Part shown: piece after piece, positions 9,005-18,536 of the stretch
How the letters are laid out: each line of letters starts with the position of its first letter
Numbering within the stretch: position 1 is the stretch's first letter
Source of the DNA: an uncultured Chromatiales bacterium
Lineage (GTDB): Bacteria > Pseudomonadota > Gammaproteobacteria > SZUA-140
Reading direction: 5' to 3'
NCBI GenBank assembly: GCA_964384095.1
Contig: CAYLKC010000002.1
Coordinates: forward strand, 1-53,728
DNA: 53,728 nt
The notes under the pieces: generated by a model
What the model saw: only the letters and a program-made list of their open reading frames with translations
The model's database searches: none
What the model was told of the DNA's origin: nothing
Program-made: the position numbers and the translations under genes

Positions 9005-11332
9005 TCAATAACGATAGCCAAGAATACCATGATCGAGCAGGCTTTCGAGGCTGGTGCCGATGCTGGTCAGCCCCTTGAGGTCGAACTGGAAATACAGGCT
9101 TCTGTCGGTGTTGCCGAAGTCGTCGTCGACGAAGCGGCGGCTGACGACACGCAGTCGCCAGCAACAACTTTGATACTCGAGACCGGCCAAAGTTTCGAGT
9201 ACGCGCTCGTCACGCAGCGAATAATTGTGACGCGCGATCAGGTGCCAGCGCGGGGTCAGCGGCCACAGCAGGGAGATGTCGGTCTGTTCCAGGGCGTCGT
9301 CGCGATAGCGGTAGGCCACGTTGAGGATGCTCCTCATTGCCGGCCGGTATTGCAGCCAGACGCCGCCCTTGTCGAATTTCCCCGTGTCCTCGCTGCGGCG
9401 TGCATCGAAGCGCAGGGACAGGCTCCGGGTCAGATTGGCCGTACCCTCGGCGACGATATCCGAGGTCTTTGACGTCTCGACGGGGTCCTGTGGCCGCAGC
9501 GTGACCTCGCGGTCCTCGAAGTAGAAGATCCGCCCGATGCCAAACTGCGCGCGCTGATTCGCGCTGGCGGCGTCGAGGTAACGCGTCGTGACCGCGACGC
9601 TGAGCTGGTTGGCGTCACCGACCCGGTCCGAGCCGTTGAAGCGATTGTCGCGGAACAGCTGGGTGAAATTGAAATCGGGCCTGCCGGTATCGAACAGTGG
9701 CAGTCCGGACTGGTCGCGATAGGGGACATAGAGATAGTACAGCCGCGGTTCCAGGGTCTGCAGCATGGGCCGGGAACCCCAGCGGGTGTCCCGCTCGAGA
9801 AAGACGCCGGTGTCGAAGGCGAAGACCGGCAGGGTACGGTCCGGCTGCGCGGCGTCTCCGCCCGGGGGGACAGGGCCGTCGTCGAGGCGGTATTGCGTAT
9901 GGCGCAATGTCAGCGTCGGTTGGGCATAGGCCGCCATCGAATAGAAAGGCAGGGTCAGGCCGGGTTGCACATCGAGGCGTCCGCCGGTGAGCCGCTGTTC
10001 GGGCACGTCGTGATCGAAGTTGACATAGCTGGTCACGAAACGCGGGTTGAGGCGGTTGCTGAATTCTGGGCGCTGGGTCCGGAACAGCAGGACCGGCAGC
10101 TGGCGATACGGGCGCCGGGCCGGCTGGATCAGGTCGTCGATGGTCTGGTAGGCCTGCAGCCGCGCCGAGGCCATCCACGCCTCGGCCTGGTAGTTCAACA
10201 CCGCGCGCTGCTCGAGATGGGTGACGCTGGCGATGCTGAGCGTATCGCCGAGGTCGCGGAAGTAGTCGCTGTCGGAGGCGCGGTTGAAGTCGAGGTCGAG
10301 GCTGAGACGCTCGCTTGGGCGGCCGAAGTGTCGGTAATTCAGCAGATAGCGATCGCGGTCGGCGAGGTCATCGCCGGGTAACCAGGTGGTCTCGATCTGG
10401 CCGCGACTCCTGCGATTCAGGTAGCGGAACTCGGTTTCGAGCATCTCCCCGCGTCGGCTGATGAAGCGCGGGGTCAGCGTGGCGTCGAAGCGCGGCGCGA
10501 GATTCAGGTAGTAAGGGGTCGCGATGTCTATACCGTTGCGCGAGGAGCTGCGCATGGTCGGACTCAGCAGCCCGGACTTGCGACGATCGTCAATCGGGAA
10601 GCTGAGATAGGGCGAATACAGGAACGGCACGCCCATGAACGACACCCTGACATGGCGCGCGGTACCGGTGCCGCGCGCCTGGTCGAGCCGCACGTGGCTG
10701 GAACGCAGCAGCCAGTCATTCCGGCCCGGATCGCAGGTCGTATAACGCATTTGCGACAACAGCGTCCGCTCCCGGTCCTCGAACTGGGCTCGCTCGGCCT
10801 CGCCGCGGGCGTGACGCTCATAGAGCAGAAAGCCGGCGTTATCGAGGTGGCCGCGATCGTCGTCGAGCCAGAATTCGCCGCGATCACCGTCGAGGACCAG
10901 GCCTTCGCGGATGACTCTGACATGGCCTTCGGCGCGCAGGAGTTCGCGCTCGCGGTCGTAGCTGGCCTGATCGGCCCTCAGTACGGTGCCGTCGCGGATC
11001 GCCTCGATCTCGCCGCGCAAGGCCAGTGTCGTGCGTCCAAGCACCCGCGCGTCGTCGGCGGACAGCAGTGTGACGCCTTCATGCCCGGGGCCGGGCAGCG
11101 ATTGCAGTTCCGGTGGCGCCGGGTATTGCGTGTGACACAGCCGCCAGTCCATCAACGGCTCCGGCGCCGGTTGCGCGAGCGCGGTGTTGCAGACGAGCAG
11201 CAGCGACAGGGCGAGCGGACGGGATGGGGATGCTGGCAAGGTGCGCTTCCGGGATGCCGGCCGCCGGCCGGGCTGTGTTTTTTCTCGTTCCGTCAGCGCC
11301 TTATTGTTGTTGATTTGGCGGAATCCTGTCAA
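9005..11332 (-). CDS. lptD: LPS-assembly outer-membrane protein LptD
   Basis: 775-aa maximal ORF starting at a TTG. An in-frame TTG at 11239 would give MPASPSRPLALSLLLVCNTALAQ, a cleaner signal peptide. It is a large beta-barrel ending in ...GILGYRY, upstream of surA. Confidence 0.9.
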   Translation of the reverse strand: MTGFRQINNNKALTEREKTQPGRRPASRKRTLPASPSRPLALSLLLVCNTALAQPAPEPLMDWRLCHTQYPAPPELQSLPGPGHEGVTLLSADDARVLGRTTLALRGEIEAIRDGTVLRADQASYDRERELLRAEGHVRVIREGLVLDGDRGEFWLDDDRGHLDNAGFLLYERHARGEAERAQFEDRERTLLSQMRYTTCDPGRNDWLLRSSHVRLDQARGTGTARHVRVSFMGVPFLYSPYLSFPIDDRRKSGLLSPTMRSSSRNGIDIATPYYLNLAPRFDATLTPRFISRRGEMLETEFRYLNRRSRGQIETTWLPGDDLADRDRYLLNYRHFGRPSERLSLDLDFNRASDSDYFRDLGDTLSIASVTHLEQRAVLNYQAEAWMASARLQAYQTIDDLIQPARRPYRQLPVLLFRTQRPEFSNRLNPRFVTSYVNFDHDVPEQRLTGGRLDVQPGLTLPFYSMAAYAQPTLTLRHTQYRLDDGPVPPGGDAAQPDRTLPVFAFDTGVFLERDTRWGSRPMLQTLEPRLYYLYVPYRDQSGLPLFDTGRPDFNFTQLFRDNRFNGSDRVGDANQLSVAVTTRYLDAASANQRAQFGIGRIFYFEDREVTLRPQDPVETSKTSDIVAEGTANLTRSLSLRFDARRSEDTGKFDKGGVWLQYRPAMRSILNVAYRYRDDALEQTDISLLWPLTPRWHLIARHNYSLRDERVLETLAGLEYQSCCWRLRVVSRRFVDDDFGNTDRSLYFQFDLKGLTSIGTSLESLLDHGILGYRY

Positions 11333-11503
11333 ACCGCGCCCCGGCGCCGGTGTGCCGGGCGATTTGTGACGGCCGTCGCATCAGTCTCGTGCGGCCTTCA
11401 CGAATCCGGCATCCGGATTGGCGCGGCCCCGGGCCGTACCGATATTCTCAAACAGAGTCGGCGGAAGCATCCGTCGCCACGGATTTCCGGAGGCAAGCAG
11501 CTC

Positions 11504-12439
11504 ATGAGCGCATCCCCACAACCAGGCGTCGCGGACAGGGTCCAGCCCCCGGTCCGCCAGGTCCCGCGCGGTAACGGCCCCCTGCTCGATATCCGGGGGC
11601 GCATTAAGCGGCTCGACAAGCTGCCGCCGATGCCGGAGATGACGCACAAGATCCTGCGGCTGAGCGCGAATCCCGATGCCAACGTCAAGGAGCTGGTCGC
11701 AATCGTCGAACTCGACCCGAGTCTTGCCGCCCAGGTCATGCGCTACGCGAGTTCGCCGTTCTTCAGCTACCAGGGCAAAGTCGAGTCGGTGCATACCGCG
11801 ATCACGCGTGTGCTCGGCTATAACACCGTGCTGAATCTCGCGCTCGGCGCCACCGCCGCGCGTGCGTTCAAGGTGCCGCGCAATGTCCCGCTGGGGCTCG
11901 ACAGCTTCTGGCGCCATGCGATCTACAGCGCAGCCCTGGTCCAGGCGCTCAGCAATGCCGTACCCAAGGAGTCACGCCCACCCGCGGGGCTCGCCTACCT
12001 TGCCGGTCTGTTACACAACTTTGGCCACCTGCTGCTCGGTCACATCTTCCGGCAGGAATTCCTGGTCCTGAACAAGTTCATCAGCAGATATCCCGACAAG
12101 CCGATCGAGCTGATCGAACAACGCGTCCTCGGCGCCGATCACGGCGCGATCGGCGCCTGGCTGATGGAGGCGTGGCGGTTACCGGAGGAGATTGTCATCG
12201 CGACGCGTGAACATCACAACGAGTGTTACCACGACATTCACGCGGTCTATCCACAGCTGGTCTTTCTCGCCGATCGCCTGCTCAAGGCGCATGGTATCGG
12301 CGATGCACCCGACGACCAGGTCCCGCAGGCAATCTACGATACGCTCGAGATCGGTGAGTACCAGGCCAAGGCAATTACTGCGAAGGTGATGGAAGGCGCC
12401 GGCGGTCTCGAGGTCATGGCCAGCAACTTCGCCGCCTGA
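11504..12439 (+). CDS. HDOD domain-containing signalling protein
   Basis: ATG at 11504 preceded by GGAGG. The sequence LPPMPEMTHKILRLSANPDANVKELVAIVELDPSLAAQVMRYASSPFF is a typical HDOD domain. The upstream 852 nt of ORF 10652.. are antisense to lptD. Confidence 0.8.
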   Translation: MSASPQPGVADRVQPPVRQVPRGNGPLLDIRGRIKRLDKLPPMPEMTHKILRLSANPDANVKELVAIVELDPSLAAQVMRYASSPFFSYQGKVESVHTAITRVLGYNTVLNLALGATAARAFKVPRNVPLGLDSFWRHAIYSAALVQALSNAVPKESRPPAGLAYLAGLLHNFGHLLLGHIFRQEFLVLNKFISRYPDKPIELIEQRVLGADHGAIGAWLMEAWRLPEEIVIATREHHNECYHDIHAVYPQLVFLADRLLKAHGIGDAPDDQVPQAIYDTLEIGEYQAKAITAKVMEGAGGLEVMASNFAA

Positions 12440-12457
12440 GATCCTCCAGGCGGGGTG

Positions 12458-12494
12458 TCGGGGTCAGGCCCGGATCTCCCGGCCCTGACCCCGA
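12458..12494. terminator. GC-rich hairpin between convergent genes (candidate bidirectional terminator)
   Basis: tcggggtcaggcccgg / ccggccctgaccccga form a 16-bp stem with 1 mismatch and a 5-nt loop. There is no U-tract. A second 7-bp stem lies at 12493-12512. Confidence 0.4.
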
Positions 12495-12510
12495 TCAGGT
12501 CGCGGCCTGA

Positions 12511-13677
12511 TCAGGCCGAGGCGCAGACCTGGGCATAGTCCTGGTAGCCCGGGAATTCCCTGCCTTCACCGCAGTAGCGGCAATTCGGATTCTTGCGCAC
12601 CTTCATCTCGGTGAACTGGCCCGACAGCGCGTCGTAATGGGTCATGCGCCCGACCAGCGGTTCGCCGATGTCGAGCAGGATCTTGACGGTCTCGACCGCC
12701 TGCAGCAGGCCGAGCGTTCCGGGCATGACGCCGAGTACACCGGCCTCGGCGCATGAAGGCGCGAATTCGGGCGGCGGCGGCTCCGGGAACATGCAGCGGT
12801 AACATCCCCCCTTGACCTTTTCGTAGGCCGGCCAGAACACGGTGATCTGGCCCTCGAAGCGGTAGACCGCGGCGTGGACGTTCGGCTTGCCCAGCTTCAC
12901 GCAGGCGTCGTTGATCAGGTAGCGCGTCGCGAGATTGTCGGAGCCATCGACGATGACGTCGTAGTCATCGAAGATTTCCTCGACATTGCTGCTCTCGATA
13001 TGGGTCTGGTAGGTCCGCACCGTGATCCTGGGATTCAGCTGCTCCAGCGCGATGCGCGCCGATTCGACCTTCGGCATGCCGACCCGCGCTTCCGTATGCA
13101 GGATCTGGCGTTGCAGGTTGCTGCGGTCGACGACGTCATGATCGACGAGGCCGATCGTGCCGACGCCGGCGGCGGCGAGGTAATAGGCCGATGGTGAGCC
13201 GAGCCCGCCGGCGCCGATCAGCAGCACCTTGCTGCCGAGCAGCTTGAGCTGGCCGGCCTCGCCGACATCGGGCATCAGCAGGTGGCGGGAGTAACGCTCG
13301 CGCGCCTCGGCGTCGAGGGTCGGCGGGACTTCAAAGGGATGACCTTCGTTCTTCCAGCGACTGAAGCCGCCCTTGACCGAGCGCACGTCACGGTAGCCGA
13401 GGCGCTTGAGGTCCTCGGCGGCGAACAGCGAGCGGACTCCGCCGGCGCACATCACCAGCACCGGGGCGTCGAAGTCCGGCACGGCGTCCTCGATTCGCAA
13501 TTCGAGAAAACCGCGACCGAGGCGGTGGGCGTCGGTCGGGCTGCCCTGGGCGACCTCATCGGTGTCGCGGACGTCAATCAGTGCGGCTCCCTGCCTCTGC
13601 ATCGCCAGTGCCTCCGCTGGCGTGATCTCGGGAATCGCGTCACGCAATTCCGCCAGTCGACGATCTTTGGCCTTCAT
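12511..13677 (-). CDS. rhodanese-ThiF/MoeB fusion (MoaD/ThiS-type adenylyltransferase-sulfurtransferase) with the rhodanese domain N-terminal
   Basis: 388 aa. The N-terminal rhodanese has a CAGGVRS active-site loop. It is followed by RYSRHLL...LLIGAGGLGSP...DRSNLQRQILH, with CYRC and CRYC zinc motifs. Confidence 0.85.
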   Translation of the reverse strand: MKAKDRRLAELRDAIPEITPAEALAMQRQGAALIDVRDTDEVAQGSPTDAHRLGRGFLELRIEDAVPDFDAPVLVMCAGGVRSLFAAEDLKRLGYRDVRSVKGGFSRWKNEGHPFEVPPTLDAEARERYSRHLLMPDVGEAGQLKLLGSKVLLIGAGGLGSPSAYYLAAAGVGTIGLVDHDVVDRSNLQRQILHTEARVGMPKVESARIALEQLNPRITVRTYQTHIESSNVEEIFDDYDVIVDGSDNLATRYLINDACVKLGKPNVHAAVYRFEGQITVFWPAYEKVKGGCYRCMFPEPPPPEFAPSCAEAGVLGVMPGTLGLLQAVETVKILLDIGEPLVGRMTHYDALSGQFTEMKVRKNPNCRYCGEGREFPGYQDYAQVCASA

Positions 13678-13788
13678 GTCACCTCCGAGCCGGATATGTC
13701 GGGTGCAGAGCGGGTTGCCGGCGGTTGCGCCGGTGCCCCGGTTTGCGGGTCTGGGCGTTTCATAAAAAAGTTCTGCGAGGACGGATAA

Positions 13789-14544
13789 TTATACATTATG
13801 ACGATCGCATTGGGGATCCTTGGCCAGCGCGGACTGCCGCCAGCTCATCGCCGCAGCGTCGATACGCGTCAGGCGCCCGCAAAGGGTATCGCCCAGGTCG
13901 AGCAGGACCTTGAGGGCCTCTGTCGCCATGATGCAGCCGACGATCCCGGCGAGCGGCGCCAGTACGCCGGCCGCGGCACAGCTTTCGTCGAGGGCATCGC
14001 GCTCGCGCTCCGGATACAGACAGGCAAGGCAGGGGCTGTCCGGGCGGCGGAAATCGAAGGTCGAGGCCTGGCCCTGCAGGCGGATCACCGCCCCCCAGAC
14101 CAGCGGCACGCGGGCCGCGGCGCAGGCCCGGTTGATCGCGAAGCGGCTGTCGAAGTTGTCGGTGGCGTCGAGTACCACATCGGTATTGGTCACCGCCCGC
14201 GCGAGCGCCTCGCCGTCGAGGCGATTCGCGATCGTGACGAGTTCGATCCCGGGATTCAGCGCATGCAGACGATCGCGCGCGGAGGCGGTCTTGGCTCGCC
14301 CCAGGTCGGCGGTCGAGTGCAGGATCTGGCGCTGGAGATTGCCGGCCTCGACCTCGTCGTGATCGCAGAGCACGAGGCGACCGACGCCGCTGGCGGCCAG
14401 ATAGAGCGCAGCCGGTGAACCCAGTCCGCCGAGACCGATGATCAGCGCGGTGGCGCCCAGCAGCCGCTCCTGCCCCGCGATATCGATCTGCGGGAGCAGG
14501 AGGTGACGGCTATAGCGCTGGAGTTGTTCGCGGTCCAGGTCGAT
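13789..14544 (-). CDS. ThiF/MoeB-family E1-like adenylyltransferase (second copy, no rhodanese domain); start codon non-canonical or unresolved
   Basis: The frame is open from 14556. It translates as IDLDREQLQRYSRHLLLPQIDIAGQERLLGATALIIGLGGLGSPAALYLAASGVGRLVLCDHDEV..NLQRQILH. The first ATG/GTG/TTG (14373) lies after the Rossmann GxGxxG, so the start must be upstream (ATC at 14544 or CTG at 14538). Confidence 0.75.
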   Translation of the reverse strand: MDLDREQLQRYSRHLLLPQIDIAGQERLLGATALIIGLGGLGSPAALYLAASGVGRLVLCDHDEVEAGNLQRQILHSTADLGRAKTASARDRLHALNPGIELVTIANRLDGEALARAVTNTDVVLDATDNFDSRFAINRACAAARVPLVWGAVIRLQGQASTFDFRRPDSPCLACLYPERERDALDESCAAAGVLAPLAGIVGCIMATEALKVLLDLGDTLCGRLTRIDAAAMSWRQSALAKDPQCDRHNV

Positions 14545-14556
14545 GCGACCCCGCTG

Positions 14557-15492
14557 TCAGAAGCTGTAGGAGAAAAAGCAGTCCTGCGGCGTGCGACCGT
14601 CGTCCGCCCAGCCGCCGAGCAGGTAGATCGTGTTGTCGATGACGCCGACGCCCATCGCGCACAATGGCTGGGGGATCGGCGGCAGGATATGCCACTTGTC
14701 CGTGGCGGTGTCGTGGAAGGCGCAGTGGTCGCTGATGCCATCACCGCTGTAGCCCCCGAAGATGAACAGCCGTCCGGCGGCCAGGCAGGCCCCGGCCCCG
14801 GCCGCGGTCCACGGCAGGGTCAGTTGTTCGCGCGTCCACCGCCCCGTCTCCGGGTCGTAGGCCTCGATGTGGTCGAAATTGTTGAAACCCTCGGGGGTAA
14901 ACGCGACGCCGCCCATGGTCAGGATGCGGTCATCGACGACCACCGCGTCGAGCGCGAAACGCGGCGTCGGCAGCGGGGCGATCTCCTCCCACCGACCGGT
15001 CTCCAGGTTCAGCCGTTCGCAGAAATCGAAGCCCGGATCGGTCTTCGGCCCGGAGGTCGTCGCGTCGGGGTGATGTCCGCCGAGTATGTAGATATGGCCG
15101 TCGAGCAGGGCGCCGGCCGGGTAGTCATGCGGCATCAGCATGTCGGGACCGGACTCCCAGCGGTCCTCGCCGGGATAGTAGATCTCGGTCGTGCGCAGGA
15201 AACGGAAGGTGCCGTTCTCCTGCTTGAAGCCGCCGCCGATGATGTAGATCGCGTCACCGACGGTGCGCGCGATCGCCCCGGAGCGGTAGGTCGGCATATC
15301 GGCCCCTCGCTCCCAGCGGTCGCGTGCGGGATCGTAAATAATTACGGAATTCAGACTCTTGAAGTTTGGCCCGCCGCCGCCGAAACCGTAGATGCGACCG
15401 TTCCAGGTGGCCGTCGGGCAATGCGAGCGGGCGACGGGGAGGGCGGGCTTGCGGGTCCAGGCGCCATTGAGGCAGTCGTCAGCAGTCTTCAT
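14557..15492 (-). CDS. cytoplasmic six-bladed Kelch-repeat beta-propeller protein
   Basis: 311 aa with six GG-doublet blades (IYGFGG, IYIIGG, IYILGG, ILTMGG, LFIFGG, IYLLGG), each followed by a W-containing strand. No signal peptide. Confidence 0.8.
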   Translation of the reverse strand: MKTADDCLNGAWTRKPALPVARSHCPTATWNGRIYGFGGGGPNFKSLNSVIIYDPARDRWERGADMPTYRSGAIARTVGDAIYIIGGGFKQENGTFRFLRTTEIYYPGEDRWESGPDMLMPHDYPAGALLDGHIYILGGHHPDATTSGPKTDPGFDFCERLNLETGRWEEIAPLPTPRFALDAVVVDDRILTMGGVAFTPEGFNNFDHIEAYDPETGRWTREQLTLPWTAAGAGACLAAGRLFIFGGYSGDGISDHCAFHDTATDKWHILPPIPQPLCAMGVGVIDNTIYLLGGWADDGRTPQDCFFSYSF

Positions 15493-15744
15493 AGGGTGTC
15501 CAGCGCTCTTGTTATGGCGGATCGCATGCGAAGGGGGTCAATACATCCGCGTCGGGGTCGATAAGTGAGAATGAAGGTCGGTCATTGTCCGATGATTTGG
15601 CCGGCGACGGCAAGCGGCGCGTCAGCGATCGCCGGGGCGCAACGGTAAGCAAAGTTATCAGAAACATATGAATATTGCGCTGGGCACAGGCATTGCGGGG
15701 AGGAGTGTGATTCCGTTCCGGTTCCTATTATGTTATGCTTTTGC

Positions 15745-15990
15745 GACGGTAGACCCGGTCCGAAGTGGAGTGGGTCTAGCGGTGAAAACAGGCCTCCGGA
15801 GACGGGGGCCCTCTTCCAGCAAGGGCATGCGACCTGGGGTCATACGCACCCCGATCACCACGTTACGGACGACCGGGTGGACTGGACGTTCCACCTCAGT
15901 TCGGTTGAGGTTCAGGGACGATTCAGGTCATCACCTGGGTGATGAGGTGACGCGCGCAGGCGGGTCCCCGCGGGACGACAGGGCTGGCGA
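15745..15990 (+). promoter_or_regulatory. highly structured 5' leader upstream of moaA; candidate Moco-type riboswitch
   Basis: A chain of hairpins: agaccc..gggtct at 15751-15777, gccct..agggc, ggggt..acccc, ggtgga..tccacc, cctca..tgagg and tcatcacc..ggtgatga. It also contains GGUGAAAACAGGCCUCCGGAG, which resembles the conserved CCUCCGAG region of the Moco motif. That comparison is from memory, not from an alignment. Confidence 0.3.
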
Positions 15991-16122
15991 TGGCGATGAG
16001 CGCAAGCTGTTGTTCGCGACCTGATCCTGACAAATCCGGTCAACTATATTCTTTAGCTTTGGGTCGTTTGACAGAGTAGTTCAGGCGAAGCAGCAATAAA
16101 GAAGCCCTCGAGGAGAATCGTC

Positions 16123-17244
16123 ATGCTCAATAACCCGCTGAACCAGAAGTCCTACGGAGCCACTGATTCCAACTCCGTTTCAGCGTTGCAGCAGGAAAAC
16201 CCGCCGCTCAATCCGCTCCCGCCACTCCAGGATCGCCACGGCCGGACCTTCGACTACGTCCGTATCGCCGTCATCGAGCAGTGCAATCTCCGCTGCACCT
16301 ACTGCATGCCGGAAGAGGGCGTGAAGTTCAAGGAAAAGGACATGGTGCTGCGCACCGACGAGATCCTGCGGGTCATCGAACTCCTTGCCCGCATGGGCGT
16401 GCGCAAGGTCCGTTTCACCGGCGGTGAGCCGCTGGTCCGCCCGGACATCGTCGATATCGTCGCGCGCTCGGTGAAGATCCCCGGCGTCAAGGCGACACAC
16501 CTGACGACCAACGGCCTGCTGTTCCCGAAATACGCGAAGGCGCTGCGAGAGGCCGGCCTGTTCGGCGTCAACATCAGCCTCGATTCGCTGCAGGCCGACA
16601 AGTTCGAGACCATCACTCGCCGCTCCGGCCTCGAGAAGGTGCTCGAGAGCATCGACCTCGCTGTCGAGCTTGGTTTCCCGCGCGTCAAGGTCAATGTCGT
16701 GCTAATGCGCGGCTTCAACGAGGATGAACTGATCTCGTTCTGCGAATTGACCAAGGACAAGCCGATCACTGTACGTTTTATCGAATTCATGCCGTTCGAT
16801 GCCCACCAGATCTGGGAGAGCGGCCAGCACTTCGCCAGCGCCGCGGATCTCTGCGGACAGATTGAATCGCACTACAAGTCCCAGGGGCTCGAGCCCGCCA
16901 GCGGTACCCGTACCGAGCACCACATCTATCACGTCCCCGGCTATGCAGGAAAATTCGCGGTGATCCCGGCCTTTACCCGCAGCCTCTGCGGCAACTGTTC
17001 GCGTATCCGCGTGACCGCCGACGGCAATATCATGAATTGCCTCTATTCCGAAGAGCCCTATCACCTGCGCGACCTGATCCGCAAGGGCGGCAGCGATGAT
17101 GACATCGTCGGCCTGTTCCGCAAGGCCTTCGATGAAAAGCACAAGGACGGTTTCGAGGCCAAGAAGGCGGCCAGCGTCGCGGCCAAGATCAACGTTTCGG
17201 ATATCAACCGTTCACGGGCCAGCATGACCCAGATCGGCGGCTGA
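16123..17244 (+). CDS. moaA: GTP 3',8-cyclase (radical SAM)
   Basis: 373 aa. [22 protein letters not shown] contains the CxxxCxxC motif. RBS GAGGAG lies 7 nt upstream. It carries an N-terminal extension of about 35 aa. Confidence 0.93.
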
Positions 17245-17296: not shown

Positions 17297-17788
17297 ATGA
17301 GCTATAACGACCTGACCCACTTCAACGCCAGCGGTGAGGCGTACATGGTCGATGTCGGCGCGAAGAACAGCACCACGCGCGAGGGCATCGCCGAGGGCCG
17401 CATCTACATGGAGCCCGAGACGCTGAAAAAGATCATGGAGGGGTCGCACAAAAAGGGTGACGTGCTCGGTATCGCGCGCGTCGCCGGCATCATGGGCGCA
17501 AAGAAGACCCCGGACCTCATTCCGCTGTGTCATCCGATCATGATCACTTCGGTCGATCTGGTGCTGACTCCGGAGCCCGAGAACAATGCCGTCTACTGCA
17601 AGGCGACTGTGCGCTGCAACGGTCAGACCGGCGTCGAGATGGAGACCCTGACCGCGGTGCAGGTCGCGCTGCTGACGATCTACGATATGTGCAAGGCGGT
17701 CGATCGCGGCATGGTGATTTCGGAAATCGGGCTGCTCGAGAAGTCGGGCGGCAAGTCGGGCCACTGGCGCAGGTCGGCGACCGCCTGA
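17297..17788 (+). CDS. moaC: cyclic pyranopterin monophosphate synthase
   Basis: 163 aa. [18 protein letters not shown]...[29 protein letters not shown] is the MoaC signature. Confidence 0.95.
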
Positions 17789-17827
17789 GGGCGGCGACGG
17801 TTGCTTACTCGAGCAGAGGCGGAAAAC

Positions 17828-18061
17828 ATGGATATCAAGATACGTTACTTCGCGAGTCTTCGCGATCGCATGGGCAAGTCCGAGGACAAGGTCAGCCTGA
17901 AGGGCGACAAGATCACGGTCGCGGATGTCTGGGGCGAAGTCTCCAGCGATCCGATCCCCGAGACCATCCTGGTTGCCGTGAACATGGAGTACACGGATTC
18001 GAGCCACGAACTGAAGAGCGGCGATGAGGTTGCGTTCTTCCCGCCGGTGACTGGAGGCTGA
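17828..18061 (+). CDS. moaD: molybdopterin synthase sulfur-carrier subunit
   Basis: MDIKIRYFASLRDRMG...FFPPVTGG has a ubiquitin-like fold signature and a C-terminal GG. The ORF track start at 17801 is probably too early. Confidence 0.85.
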   Translation: MDIKIRYFASLRDRMGKSEDKVSLKGDKITVADVWGEVSSDPIPETILVAVNMEYTDSSHELKSGDEVAFFPPVTGG

Positions 18062-18062
18062 C

Positions 18063-18536
18063 ATGAAGGTATTCATCACCAAGGATACGCTGGATCCGTA
18101 CAAGGAGGTGCTGGAGTACGAGAAAAACGTGCTGCCTCCGGGCAAGCACGGTGGCGTCGTGACCTTCGTCGGCACGATGCGCGACTTCAACGACGGCCAG
18201 GACGTCCGCGCGATGAATCTCGACTACTATCCGGGCATGACCGAGCACCATATCGAGCGCGTCTGCCAGGAGGCGATGGACGAGTGGGACATCATGGACT
18301 GCATGGTCGGCCACCGCGTCGGCGAGATGGTGCCGACTGATCCGATCGTACTGGTCGCCGTGTGGTCGGCGCATCGCAAGGATTCCTTCGATGCCTGCCG
18401 CTACATCATCAACTACCTCAAGGAAAGCGCCCCGTTCTGGAAGTGCGAGGTGACGACCGAGGGCAAGAAGCACTGGGTCGAGAAGAATTCCGAGGACCCG
18501 GGCGTCGCCCAGCGGGTGGTCAGAAAGTCCGCCTGA
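18063..18536 (+). CDS. moaE: molybdopterin synthase catalytic subunit
   Basis: 157 aa. GGVVTFVGTMRDF...VLVAVWSAHRKDSFDACRYIINYLKESAPFWK is the MoaE signature. Confidence 0.92.
   Translation: MKVFITKDTLDPYKEVLEYEKNVLPPGKHGGVVTFVGTMRDFNDGQDVRAMNLDYYPGMTEHHIERVCQEAMDEWDIMDCMVGHRVGEMVPTDPIVLVAVWSAHRKDSFDACRYIINYLKESAPFWKCEVTTEGKKHWVEKNSEDPGVAQRVVRKSA

Follow-up and report, generated by a model that had tools for sequence, protein, structure and literature searches.

A bacterial Kelch protein subfamily associated with a MoeB-type adenylyltransferase and the moaACDE operon in an uncultured gammaproteobacterial lineage

Organization of the locus

The window analyzed here is a stretch of 53,728 nucleotides (contig CAYLKC010000002.1, positions 1 to 53,728, GenBank assembly GCA_964384095.1) from an uncultured Chromatiales bacterium of the GTDB lineage SZUA-140. 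Between positions 12511 and 15492, the minus strand of the window contains three open reading frames (ORFs), which code for a Kelch propeller protein (hereafter Kelch), a stand-alone E1-like adenylyltransferase of the MoeB/ThiF type (E1a) and a second E1 with an N-terminal rhodanese domain (RhdE1). The three genes lie opposite moaA, moaC, moaD and moaE, which are transcribed in the other direction. Rhodanese-first E1 enzymes are already catalogued, and the presence of two E1 paralogues is ordinary; the interesting part is an uncharacterised Kelch subfamily that appears to be tied to MoeB and the moa operon, which is a well-supported genomic association. The features of the locus are as follows:

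14557..15492, minus strand: Kelch, six-bladed beta-propeller protein of 311 amino acids (ORF, Pfam, AlphaFold2 model, orthologue alignment)
13789..14544, minus strand: E1a, stand-alone MoeB/ThiF-type adenylyltransferase of about 250 amino acids (Pfam ThiF, NF004281, orthologue alignment)
13678..13788, no strand: spacer of 111 bp between E1a and RhdE1, with a TATAAT sequence overlapping the E1a stop codon
12511..13677, minus strand: RhdE1, rhodanese-first MoeB/ThiF fusion of 388 amino acids (Pfam, NF006444/PRK08762)
15493..16122, no strand: divergent intergenic region of 630 bp between Kelch and moaA
16123..17244, plus strand: moaA, radical S-adenosylmethionine GTP 3',8-cyclase, divergent from Kelch (name from the first reading of the sequence and from tblastn synteny)
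17297..17788, plus strand: moaC (ORF and synteny)
17801..18061, plus strand: moaD, sulfur carrier ending in GG (ThiS family, E 1.3e-15; TIGR01682)
18063..18536, plus strand: moaE (MoaE domain, E 7.8e-33)

An earlier note, made from the letters of the window alone, had described the three minus-strand genes with these coordinates, the 111-bp spacer with a TATAAT-like box and a divergent moa block whose MoaD ends in GG. The ORF listing confirms the genes and their coordinates, a TATAAT box is present and overlaps the E1a stop codon, and the moa block is supported by ORFs and synteny and, for moaD and moaE, by Pfam. The C-terminus of MoaD reads TGG, and the protein reaches 69.6 bits with the moaD model TIGR01682 (cut-off 66.15); the true start of moaD is likely the ATG at about 17828.

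Co-conservation of Kelch and E1a

The same GTDB family comprises 24 other genomes, of which 23 contain a full-length Kelch orthologue with 67 to 93% sequence identity; in the remaining one (G016), the match is partial and lies at the edge of a contig. Sixteen other sampled families of the class yielded only one weak match with 28% identity. A wider sample comprised 120 Kelch loci, 40 from genomes and 80 from metagenomes, with 116 distinct Kelch sequences. An E1 gene follows Kelch directly in 91 of the 107 loci that have at least 400 bp of downstream sequence; the pair, which the earlier note had proposed to look for in other genomes, is therefore co-conserved and not unique to the window. The gap between the aligned ends of the two genes has a median of 21 nucleotides (range 2 to 187), and among the 88 loci whose upstream sequence extends for 1500 bp or more, 73 have a divergent moaA within 1.5 kb. 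The linkage is kept over a range of 53 to 93% Kelch identity, and down to about 47 to 50% identity of E1a. RhdE1 is a neighbour only in closer relatives; in distant members, rpsU-dnaG-rpoD stand behind E1a and RhdE1 is not adjacent. Since the pair is retained where rpsU-dnaG-rpoD takes the place of RhdE1, Kelch and E1a constitute a two-gene unit.

In a quick maximum-likelihood tree of Kelch with 116 rows, for which 5 of 121 sequences were dropped due to short or interrupted matches, the genes linked to an E1 group together in a single proteobacterial block, which suggests that the linkage with E1 arose about once. The unlinked genes fall into two Nitrospirota clades, with one long-branch exception (L117). 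Relatives of the lineage are present in metagenomes from activated sludge, compost, landfill and wastewater, and the record titles for Kelch relatives indicate bins from groundwater and other environments. A literature search by title, with subscription journals outside its scope, returned no paper on a Kelch-MoeB pairing.

The Kelch protein

Kelch matches the Pfam families Kelch_1 (PF01344; E 1.7e-36, 123.8 bits, in five stretches) and Kelch_6 (PF13964; E 7.7e-38), and its Pfam matches are confined to Kelch families plus a partial NANM match, that is, the protein consists of the propeller alone. An AlphaFold2 model built with 26 orthologues has a pLDDT (predicted local distance difference test) of 94.3 and a pTM (predicted template modelling score) of 0.92, and its strand runs form six blades. 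The N-terminus, MKTADDCLNGAWTRK, has no hydrophobic signal stretch as judged by eye, which agrees with the cytoplasmic six-bladed Kelch protein that had been read from the sequence. When the model was used for a Foldseek search, the best matches were the generic Kelch domains of NS1-BP and Keap1 and of designed SAKe proteins (E about 1e-21, template modelling score 0.75 to 0.8).

An alignment of the 26 orthologues, 7 of which are Nitrospirota sequences, shows several groups of invariant residues: R22 S23 H24, R70 S71 G72, H122 D123, G138 G139 H140 H141 P142, D152 P153 G154 F155, C158 E159 and R178 F179. In the strand map of the model, these residues map to the loops between strands D and A and to those between B and C in blades 1 to 4, on the face which we take to be the ligand-binding one in Kelch domains such as Keap1. 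The cluster is rich in His, Asp and Cys and would suit the binding of a metal or a small molecule better than the docking of a peptide. The Kelch adaptor domains of Keap1 and the KLHL proteins, which are the best structural matches, have their conserved residues on the same loop face; however, their peptide-binding set presumably consists of Arg, Ser and Tyr, and they possess BTB/BACK domains and a ligase context, whereas the Kelch protein of the window has no such domain in Pfam and no ligase context.

The second obvious comparison is with the sialic acid mutarotase NanM/YjhT, which has the six-bladed Kelch fold as well and whose Pfam family NANM gives a partial match (64.9 bits, 90 of 350 positions). 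The NanM/YjhT models are around 70 residues longer, and the Kelch protein of the window lacks a visible signal peptide. The assignment to NanM-type mutarotases, which the earlier note had named as a possible independent identity, was rejected: Kelch reaches 52.9 and 52.5 bits with the two NCBIfam models, which require 416 and 256.35 bits, respectively. The automatic annotation of the Joint Genome Institute (JGI) names Kelch relatives 'N-acetylneuraminic acid mutarotase', and databases call the subfamily 'hypothetical' or give it the incorrect label 'sialic acid mutarotase'. The matches in the ESM Atlas are exclusively Kelch clusters from Nitrospirota and Pseudomonadota, none of which is functionally named. 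Kelch is thus a member of an uncharacterised subfamily of bacterial cytoplasmic Kelch proteins.

The stand-alone adenylyltransferase E1a

E1a matches the Pfam family ThiF (PF00899) over the full length of the domain (E 7.7e-73, 245 bits, cut-off 28.1). Its score of 285 bits exceeds the cut-off of the MoeB subfamily model NF004281 (266), and it fails the ThiF equivalog TIGR02356 (236.4 against 275.25 bits); the match to Uba4 has 131.8 bits. Both the RYSR motif and the GxGGxG loop are invariant in an alignment of 34 orthologues, as are the residues R10 Y11, G37, G39, G40 and G42, D61, N69, R72 Q73, K85, D129 N130, C172, C175, C189 and C246. Their roles in ATP binding and as the catalytic Asp are presumably those of the corresponding E. 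coli residues. E1a keeps every residue class needed by MoeB/ThiF enzymes, namely the RYSR motif, the GxGGxG loop, the Asp of the catalytic DN pair, the first CxxC and the loop Cys, and therefore looks catalytically intact. The E. coli enzymes MoeB (in complex with MoaD, 1JW9) and ThiF (with ThiS, 1ZUD/1ZFN) have the same size as E1a, align with it from end to end and agree with it in the positions for ATP binding, the catalytic Asp, the zinc site and the loop Cys. E1a differs from them by a CxxH motif, by the lack of a canonical start codon and by missing both equivalog cut-offs. It is further encoded behind a Kelch gene, whereas in E. coli, moeB presumably stands behind moeA and thiF inside the thi operon.

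The Cys motifs of E1a had been described as one complete pair, CLAC, and a second site with a single Cys in QCDRH. Both motifs are present as described; a reading of the second zinc site as degenerate, however, is not supported. Most E1a orthologues have a CxxC motif at this position, and a CxxH motif (CDCH, CDIH or CDRH) is found in 4 of the 6 examined loci of the clade of the window, namely the window itself, L019, L020 and L046; the close relatives L021 and L023 keep CxxC. The CxxH motif is hence a clade-level feature, and an exchange of a Cys for a His ligand, leading to a Cys3His site, seems more likely than a loss of the site.

The gene for E1a begins in an unusual way. Its frame is open from 14556 to 13789 and is the Kelch frame continued directly past the Kelch TGA. 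The codon at 14544, which lies 12 nucleotides past this TGA and had been given as the start of E1a, is ATC and thus not a usual start codon; the gene itself and its end at 13789 were correctly recognized. The first ATG, GTG or TTG in the frame is found at 14373, inside the nucleotide-binding region, and a start at this position would remove the GxGGxG loop. In E1a orthologues, the codon that corresponds to the ATC 14544 is ATG or GTG, and in L019, the closest relative, whose Kelch is 93% identical to that of the window, it is GTC; both the window and L019 have a CTG two codons further. The translation of E1a likely starts at the ATC 14544 or the CTG 14538, as judged from these alignments. The junction is unchanged, with no differences listed, in contigs from a compost and a landfill study (X9 record 21 and X10 record 4). 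A third record (X3 record 9) covers the whole stretch and may be its source. Since contigs from independent studies read the junction identically, the unusual start is real DNA rather than an assembly artefact. The idea that Kelch, the TGA and E1a are one read-through or broken fusion gene was rejected, as L019 and other relatives encode Kelch and E1a in different frames; it is also contradicted by the ATG and GTG starts of the E1a orthologues.

The rhodanese-first E1 enzyme RhdE1

RhdE1 consists of a rhodanese domain (residues 19 to 111) and a ThiF domain (residues 129 to 367; 279.6 bits, cut-off 28.1) as defined by Pfam, and the N-terminal position of the rhodanese, its CAGGVRS loop and the intact CYRC and CRYC pairs agree with what had been read from the sequence. 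The view that this domain order is undescribed does not hold, as a curated NCBIfam equivalog, NF006444/PRK08762, exists for MoeB with an N-terminal rhodanese, from which RhdE1 shows no structural difference. RhdE1 reaches 611 bits with this model (cut-off 449) and covers positions 3 to 385 of its 387 positions, and it fails the ThiF equivalog TIGR02356 (250.4 against 275.25 bits) as well as the MoeZ model NF005902 (352.2 against 647 bits), whose domain order is reversed. None of 14 named control genomes passed the NF006444 cut-off. The public names of RhdE1 homologues are MoeB or 'sulfur-carrier protein adenylyltransferase/sulfurtransferase', and no paper on the N-terminal-rhodanese arrangement of MoeB turned up in a literature search that did not cover subscription journals.

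Within the block, RhdE1 shows the highest conservation: of the 24 other family genomes, 23 have a full-length copy with 75 to 97% identity, and the copy of the remaining genome (G024) is cut off by the end of its contig. By its sequence, RhdE1 is an ordinary and highly conserved member of the catalogued NF006444 family. MoeZ/MoeZR of Mycobacterium, MOCS3 and Uba4 contain the same two domains, the rhodanese being C-terminal instead, and presumably catalyze the same chemistry as RhdE1, namely adenylation followed by persulfide transfer to the C-terminus of the carrier.

Some homologues of RhdE1 are longer. Eight of the best 120 (P0196, P0210, P0215, P0226, P0234, P0235, P0237 and P0238) are 71 to 74% identical to RhdE1, have 462 to 483 amino acids and contain a PF02597 MoaD-family domain; one of them is labelled Acidiferrobacterales. 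In the three fusions that were read, the extra domain is N-terminal and ends in AVAGG immediately before the rhodanese. Freeing the GG end of such a fusion would need cleavage. The fused domain reaches 58.5 bits with the SAMP1 model (cut-off 60) and 46.3 bits with the archaeal-type MoaD model, and the enzyme family as a whole thus works with MoaD/CysO-like carriers. The AVAGG domain is reminiscent of the CysO-Mec+-MoeZ system and of archaeal SAMP1/UbaA. A Prok-JAB gene, a further likeness to these systems, is also present in the genome of the window; RhdE1 of the window, however, carries no fused carrier.

Two E1 enzymes and two sulfur carriers

The genome of the window (G000; 2.2 Mb in 226 contigs, 93% complete) contains exactly two ThiF-family genes above the Pfam cut-off, E1a and RhdE1, and two ThiS-family genes. 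The latter are moaD in the window and thiS on contig 11, which is followed by thiG and trmB. No thiF stands beside thiS-thiG in this genome, and no third ThiS-family gene was found in the 93% of the genome that is covered. The earlier note had suggested a search for additional MoaD- or ThiS-like carriers; beyond MoaD, only ThiS beside thiG came to light. None of the 24 other family genomes lacks either of the two E1 enzymes, and the same is true for all 5 more distant genomes that carry Kelch-E1a. As two E1 enzymes match two carriers, the second E1 does not need a new pathway.

Molybdenum cofactor enzymes in the family

The survey of cofactor enzymes covered 36 genomes of the family. The xanthine-oxidase and AOR families are absent from all 36, the sulfite-oxidase family is present in 6 and MOSC in 11, and a dimethyl sulfoxide (DMSO)-reductase match of more than 200 bits is missing in 16, including the genome of the window. 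Canonical nitrate-reductase-sized matches, MogA and full-length MoeA share one pattern of presence and absence across these genomes; the moa-Kelch-E1a block and a Qrc-like enzyme are retained throughout. The possibility that Kelch replaces MogA was rejected, since MogA-sized matches vary among the relatives while Kelch is found in all of them.

In the genome of the window, no MoCF_biosynth match of the size of MogA/MoaB, no MobA above the cut-off and no enzyme of the sulfite-oxidase or xanthine-oxidase family were found. Its DMSO-reductase-family matches are limited to NuoG and a protein of 749 amino acids with a twin-arginine translocation (TAT) signal. This protein retains the complete CxxCxxxC...C cluster motif, contains a Molydop_binding domain, scores 261 bits with the QrcB model (cut-off 440) and is the only candidate molybdoenzyme of the genome; judged by these motifs, it may bind the cofactor. 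The idea that these genomes make molybdopterin without any molybdoenzyme was not upheld, as each well-assembled genome encodes such a TAT-signal Qrc-like protein of 749 amino acids. The gene is part of a three-gene operon (C62:310-4184, L148) together with genes for a QrcA-like multihaem cytochrome and a QrcC-like Fe-S protein. The genome also encodes a short MoeA-like protein of 333 amino acids with MoeA_N and MoCF_biosynth domains and without MoeA_C (C24:17328-18329; L149:2329-3330), whose gene sits between leucyl-aminopeptidase-like and dihydroorotase-like genes, both named by eye.

Proposed role of the locus

The route by which sulfur reaches MoaD varies: eukaryotes and mycobacteria use a rhodanese fused to the E1, and E. 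coli uses IscS, TusA and YnjE. To our knowledge, the route is not known in most bacteria. A Kelch gene that is fixed before moeB across a wide uncultured sulfur-type gammaproteobacterial lineage is a candidate for a new accessory factor. It is proposed, with an about even chance of being correct, that the locus is a supra-operon for molybdopterin synthesis, in which moaA-moaC-moaD-moaE run one way and Kelch-E1a the other way, with a second, general sulfur-carrier E1 alongside. E1a would adenylate MoaD, and RhdE1 would serve ThiS, as no thiF adjoins thiS-thiG, and may also supply persulfide sulfur. Kelch would be a lineage-specific accessory of the activation or sulfuration step of MoaD, whose ligand-binding or catalytic pocket would be formed by the invariant His, Asp, Cys and Arg residues of the blade 1 to 4 loops. 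The role that we prefer for it is the delivery of sulfur via the invariant Cys158 or the holding of a partner for the rhodanese-less E1a; Kelch would supply or position the sulfur, or the partner, for MoaD-AMP. We read Kelch as a putative ligand-binding or catalytic accessory of MoaD activation and not as a ubiquitin-type adaptor; the 'specialised sulfur-relay branch' of the earlier note is possible. If true, the proposal would give a biochemical role to a subfamily of bacterial cytoplasmic Kelch proteins.

A more specific version, which we consider doubtful, holds that Kelch is an unrecognised component of molybdopterin synthesis that passes a persulfide on Cys158 to adenylated MoaD or docks MoaD/MoaE at E1a. 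Kelch would then replace the rhodanese or the TusA/IscS-type donors used elsewhere. In a bolder variant, the Kelch pocket might bind molybdopterin or the molybdenum cofactor, Kelch being a cofactor client or carrier in genomes that otherwise show a single candidate molybdoenzyme; a role as client is made unnecessary by the Qrc-like enzyme, though it is still conceivable.

Several points weigh against the proposal. The carrier of E1a is assigned by gene position only, and the substrate of RhdE1 by homology. E1a fails the MoeB equivalog TIGR02355 (250.9 against 376.55 bits), and in the PDB it scores about equally with ThiF of E. coli, at 197.8 bits, and with MoeB, at 194.6 bits. The MoaD-domain fusions among the RhdE1 homologues could mark RhdE1 as a MoaD-type activator. 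No Kelch-E1 fusion protein was found, proteins of 546 to 2000 amino acids giving only generic Kelch matches of at most 33% identity, although this is weak evidence. Moreover, the loci are kin and not independent, and vertical inheritance explains part of the linkage count. Finally, 16 of the 107 loci, mostly of the Nitrospirota type and with 48 to 59% identity, have no E1 beside Kelch. In four of them (L050, L051, L054 and L055), a gene with a Flavin_Reduct domain lies within 0 to 50 nucleotides upstream of Kelch, two others (L133 and L141) have a divergent DsrE/DsrF-like gene, at least three have a GcvT-type gene nearby and one has a rhodanese two genes away. As these neighbours vary, the activity of Kelch is not intrinsically tied to an E1; it stands alone and was recruited to moeB in Gammaproteobacteria.

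The same loci lead to the strongest competing explanation, according to which Kelch is a passenger, a self-contained enzyme or binding protein from an unrelated pathway that entered the moeB unit once in an ancestor of the lineage, was kept by inertia or shared expression and plays no part in MoaD activation. The invariant residues are the same in the 16 loci with neither an E1 nor a moa gene nearby, the Kelch tree points to an essentially single origin of the linkage, and Kelch is universal in the family, whereas MogA, full-length MoeA, DMSO-reductase matches above 200 bits, sulfite oxidase and MOSC vary. However, the gene order and the short gap hold at the lowest identities of Kelch and E1a, and the pair is intact where all other downstream neighbours have changed. 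From general experience, functionally unlinked pairs seldom stay so tightly joined over such divergence. A passenger role of Kelch is therefore a possible explanation, clearly less probable than a role in MoaD activation.

Somewhat less probable again, and in our view unlikely, is an exchange of the two carriers, in which RhdE1 would be the true MoeB, similar to MOCS3 and MoeZ, E1a would be the ThiF for the unlinked ThiS, and Kelch would act in the thiazole or another thiocarboxylate pathway. This would fit the name MoeB of the model passed by RhdE1 (NF006444), the fused MoaD-family domains ending in GG, the best PDB match of E1a, which is E. coli ThiF by 3 bits, and the missing thiF beside thiS-thiG. 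It would not fit the position of E1a, which stays opposite moaACDE in every proteobacterial locus while RhdE1 is tens of kb away in distant members. In addition, the fused domain belongs to the SAMP1/archaeal-MoaD (CysO-like) type and not to the type of the bacterial MoaD of the window, and E1a reaches the cut-off of the MoeB subfamily model but not that of the ThiF equivalog.

The earlier note had further raised the idea of a ubiquitin-like conjugation or targeting module with Kelch as a Cullin-3-style substrate adaptor for E1a, which we regard as very improbable: the Kelch fold shared with Keap1 and NS1-BP, the adjacent E1 and a Prok-JAB protein elsewhere in the genome (about 67.7 to 67.8 bits) speak for it, but Pfam shows neither BTB/BACK nor any other adaptor domain in Kelch, the JAB gene is on another contig with no E1 or carrier beside it, MoaD and ThiS are the only carriers found and account for the E1 paralogy, and the His/Asp/Cys pattern suits a small-molecule or metal site and is kept in Nitrospirota without an E1. 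The locus itself contains no E2-like or JAB gene, with prokaryotic E2 families outside the search, and a UQ_con search of the genome was uninformative, as control genomes had no match either.

Neighbouring genes and regulatory signals

A promoter scan of positions 12300 to 16200 gave no consensus two-hexamer promoter, and terminator-like sites were not more frequent than expected by chance. No Rfam family was matched between 11000 and 19500 at E values up to 1, and thus no molybdenum cofactor riboswitch was found in this region. The Prok-JAB (JAMM) protein encoded elsewhere in the genome has 134 amino acids (C104:1042-1446, L154), and its gene is located after prfA-prmC and convergent with gatB. 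Between 18648 and 21749, on the 3' side of moaE, lie the genes for a secreted protein of 203 amino acids and for CbiM-, CbiQ- and CbiO-like transporter proteins, which were named by eye. The first two of these genes stay beside moaE in many related loci, and the group may be a metal-uptake unit that travels with the moa operon. On the other side of the block, an HDOD-domain gene (11600-12439) is convergent with RhdE1, and this pair is kept in closer relatives; the listed ORF (10652-12439) is over-extended, with the domain at residues 324 to 523.

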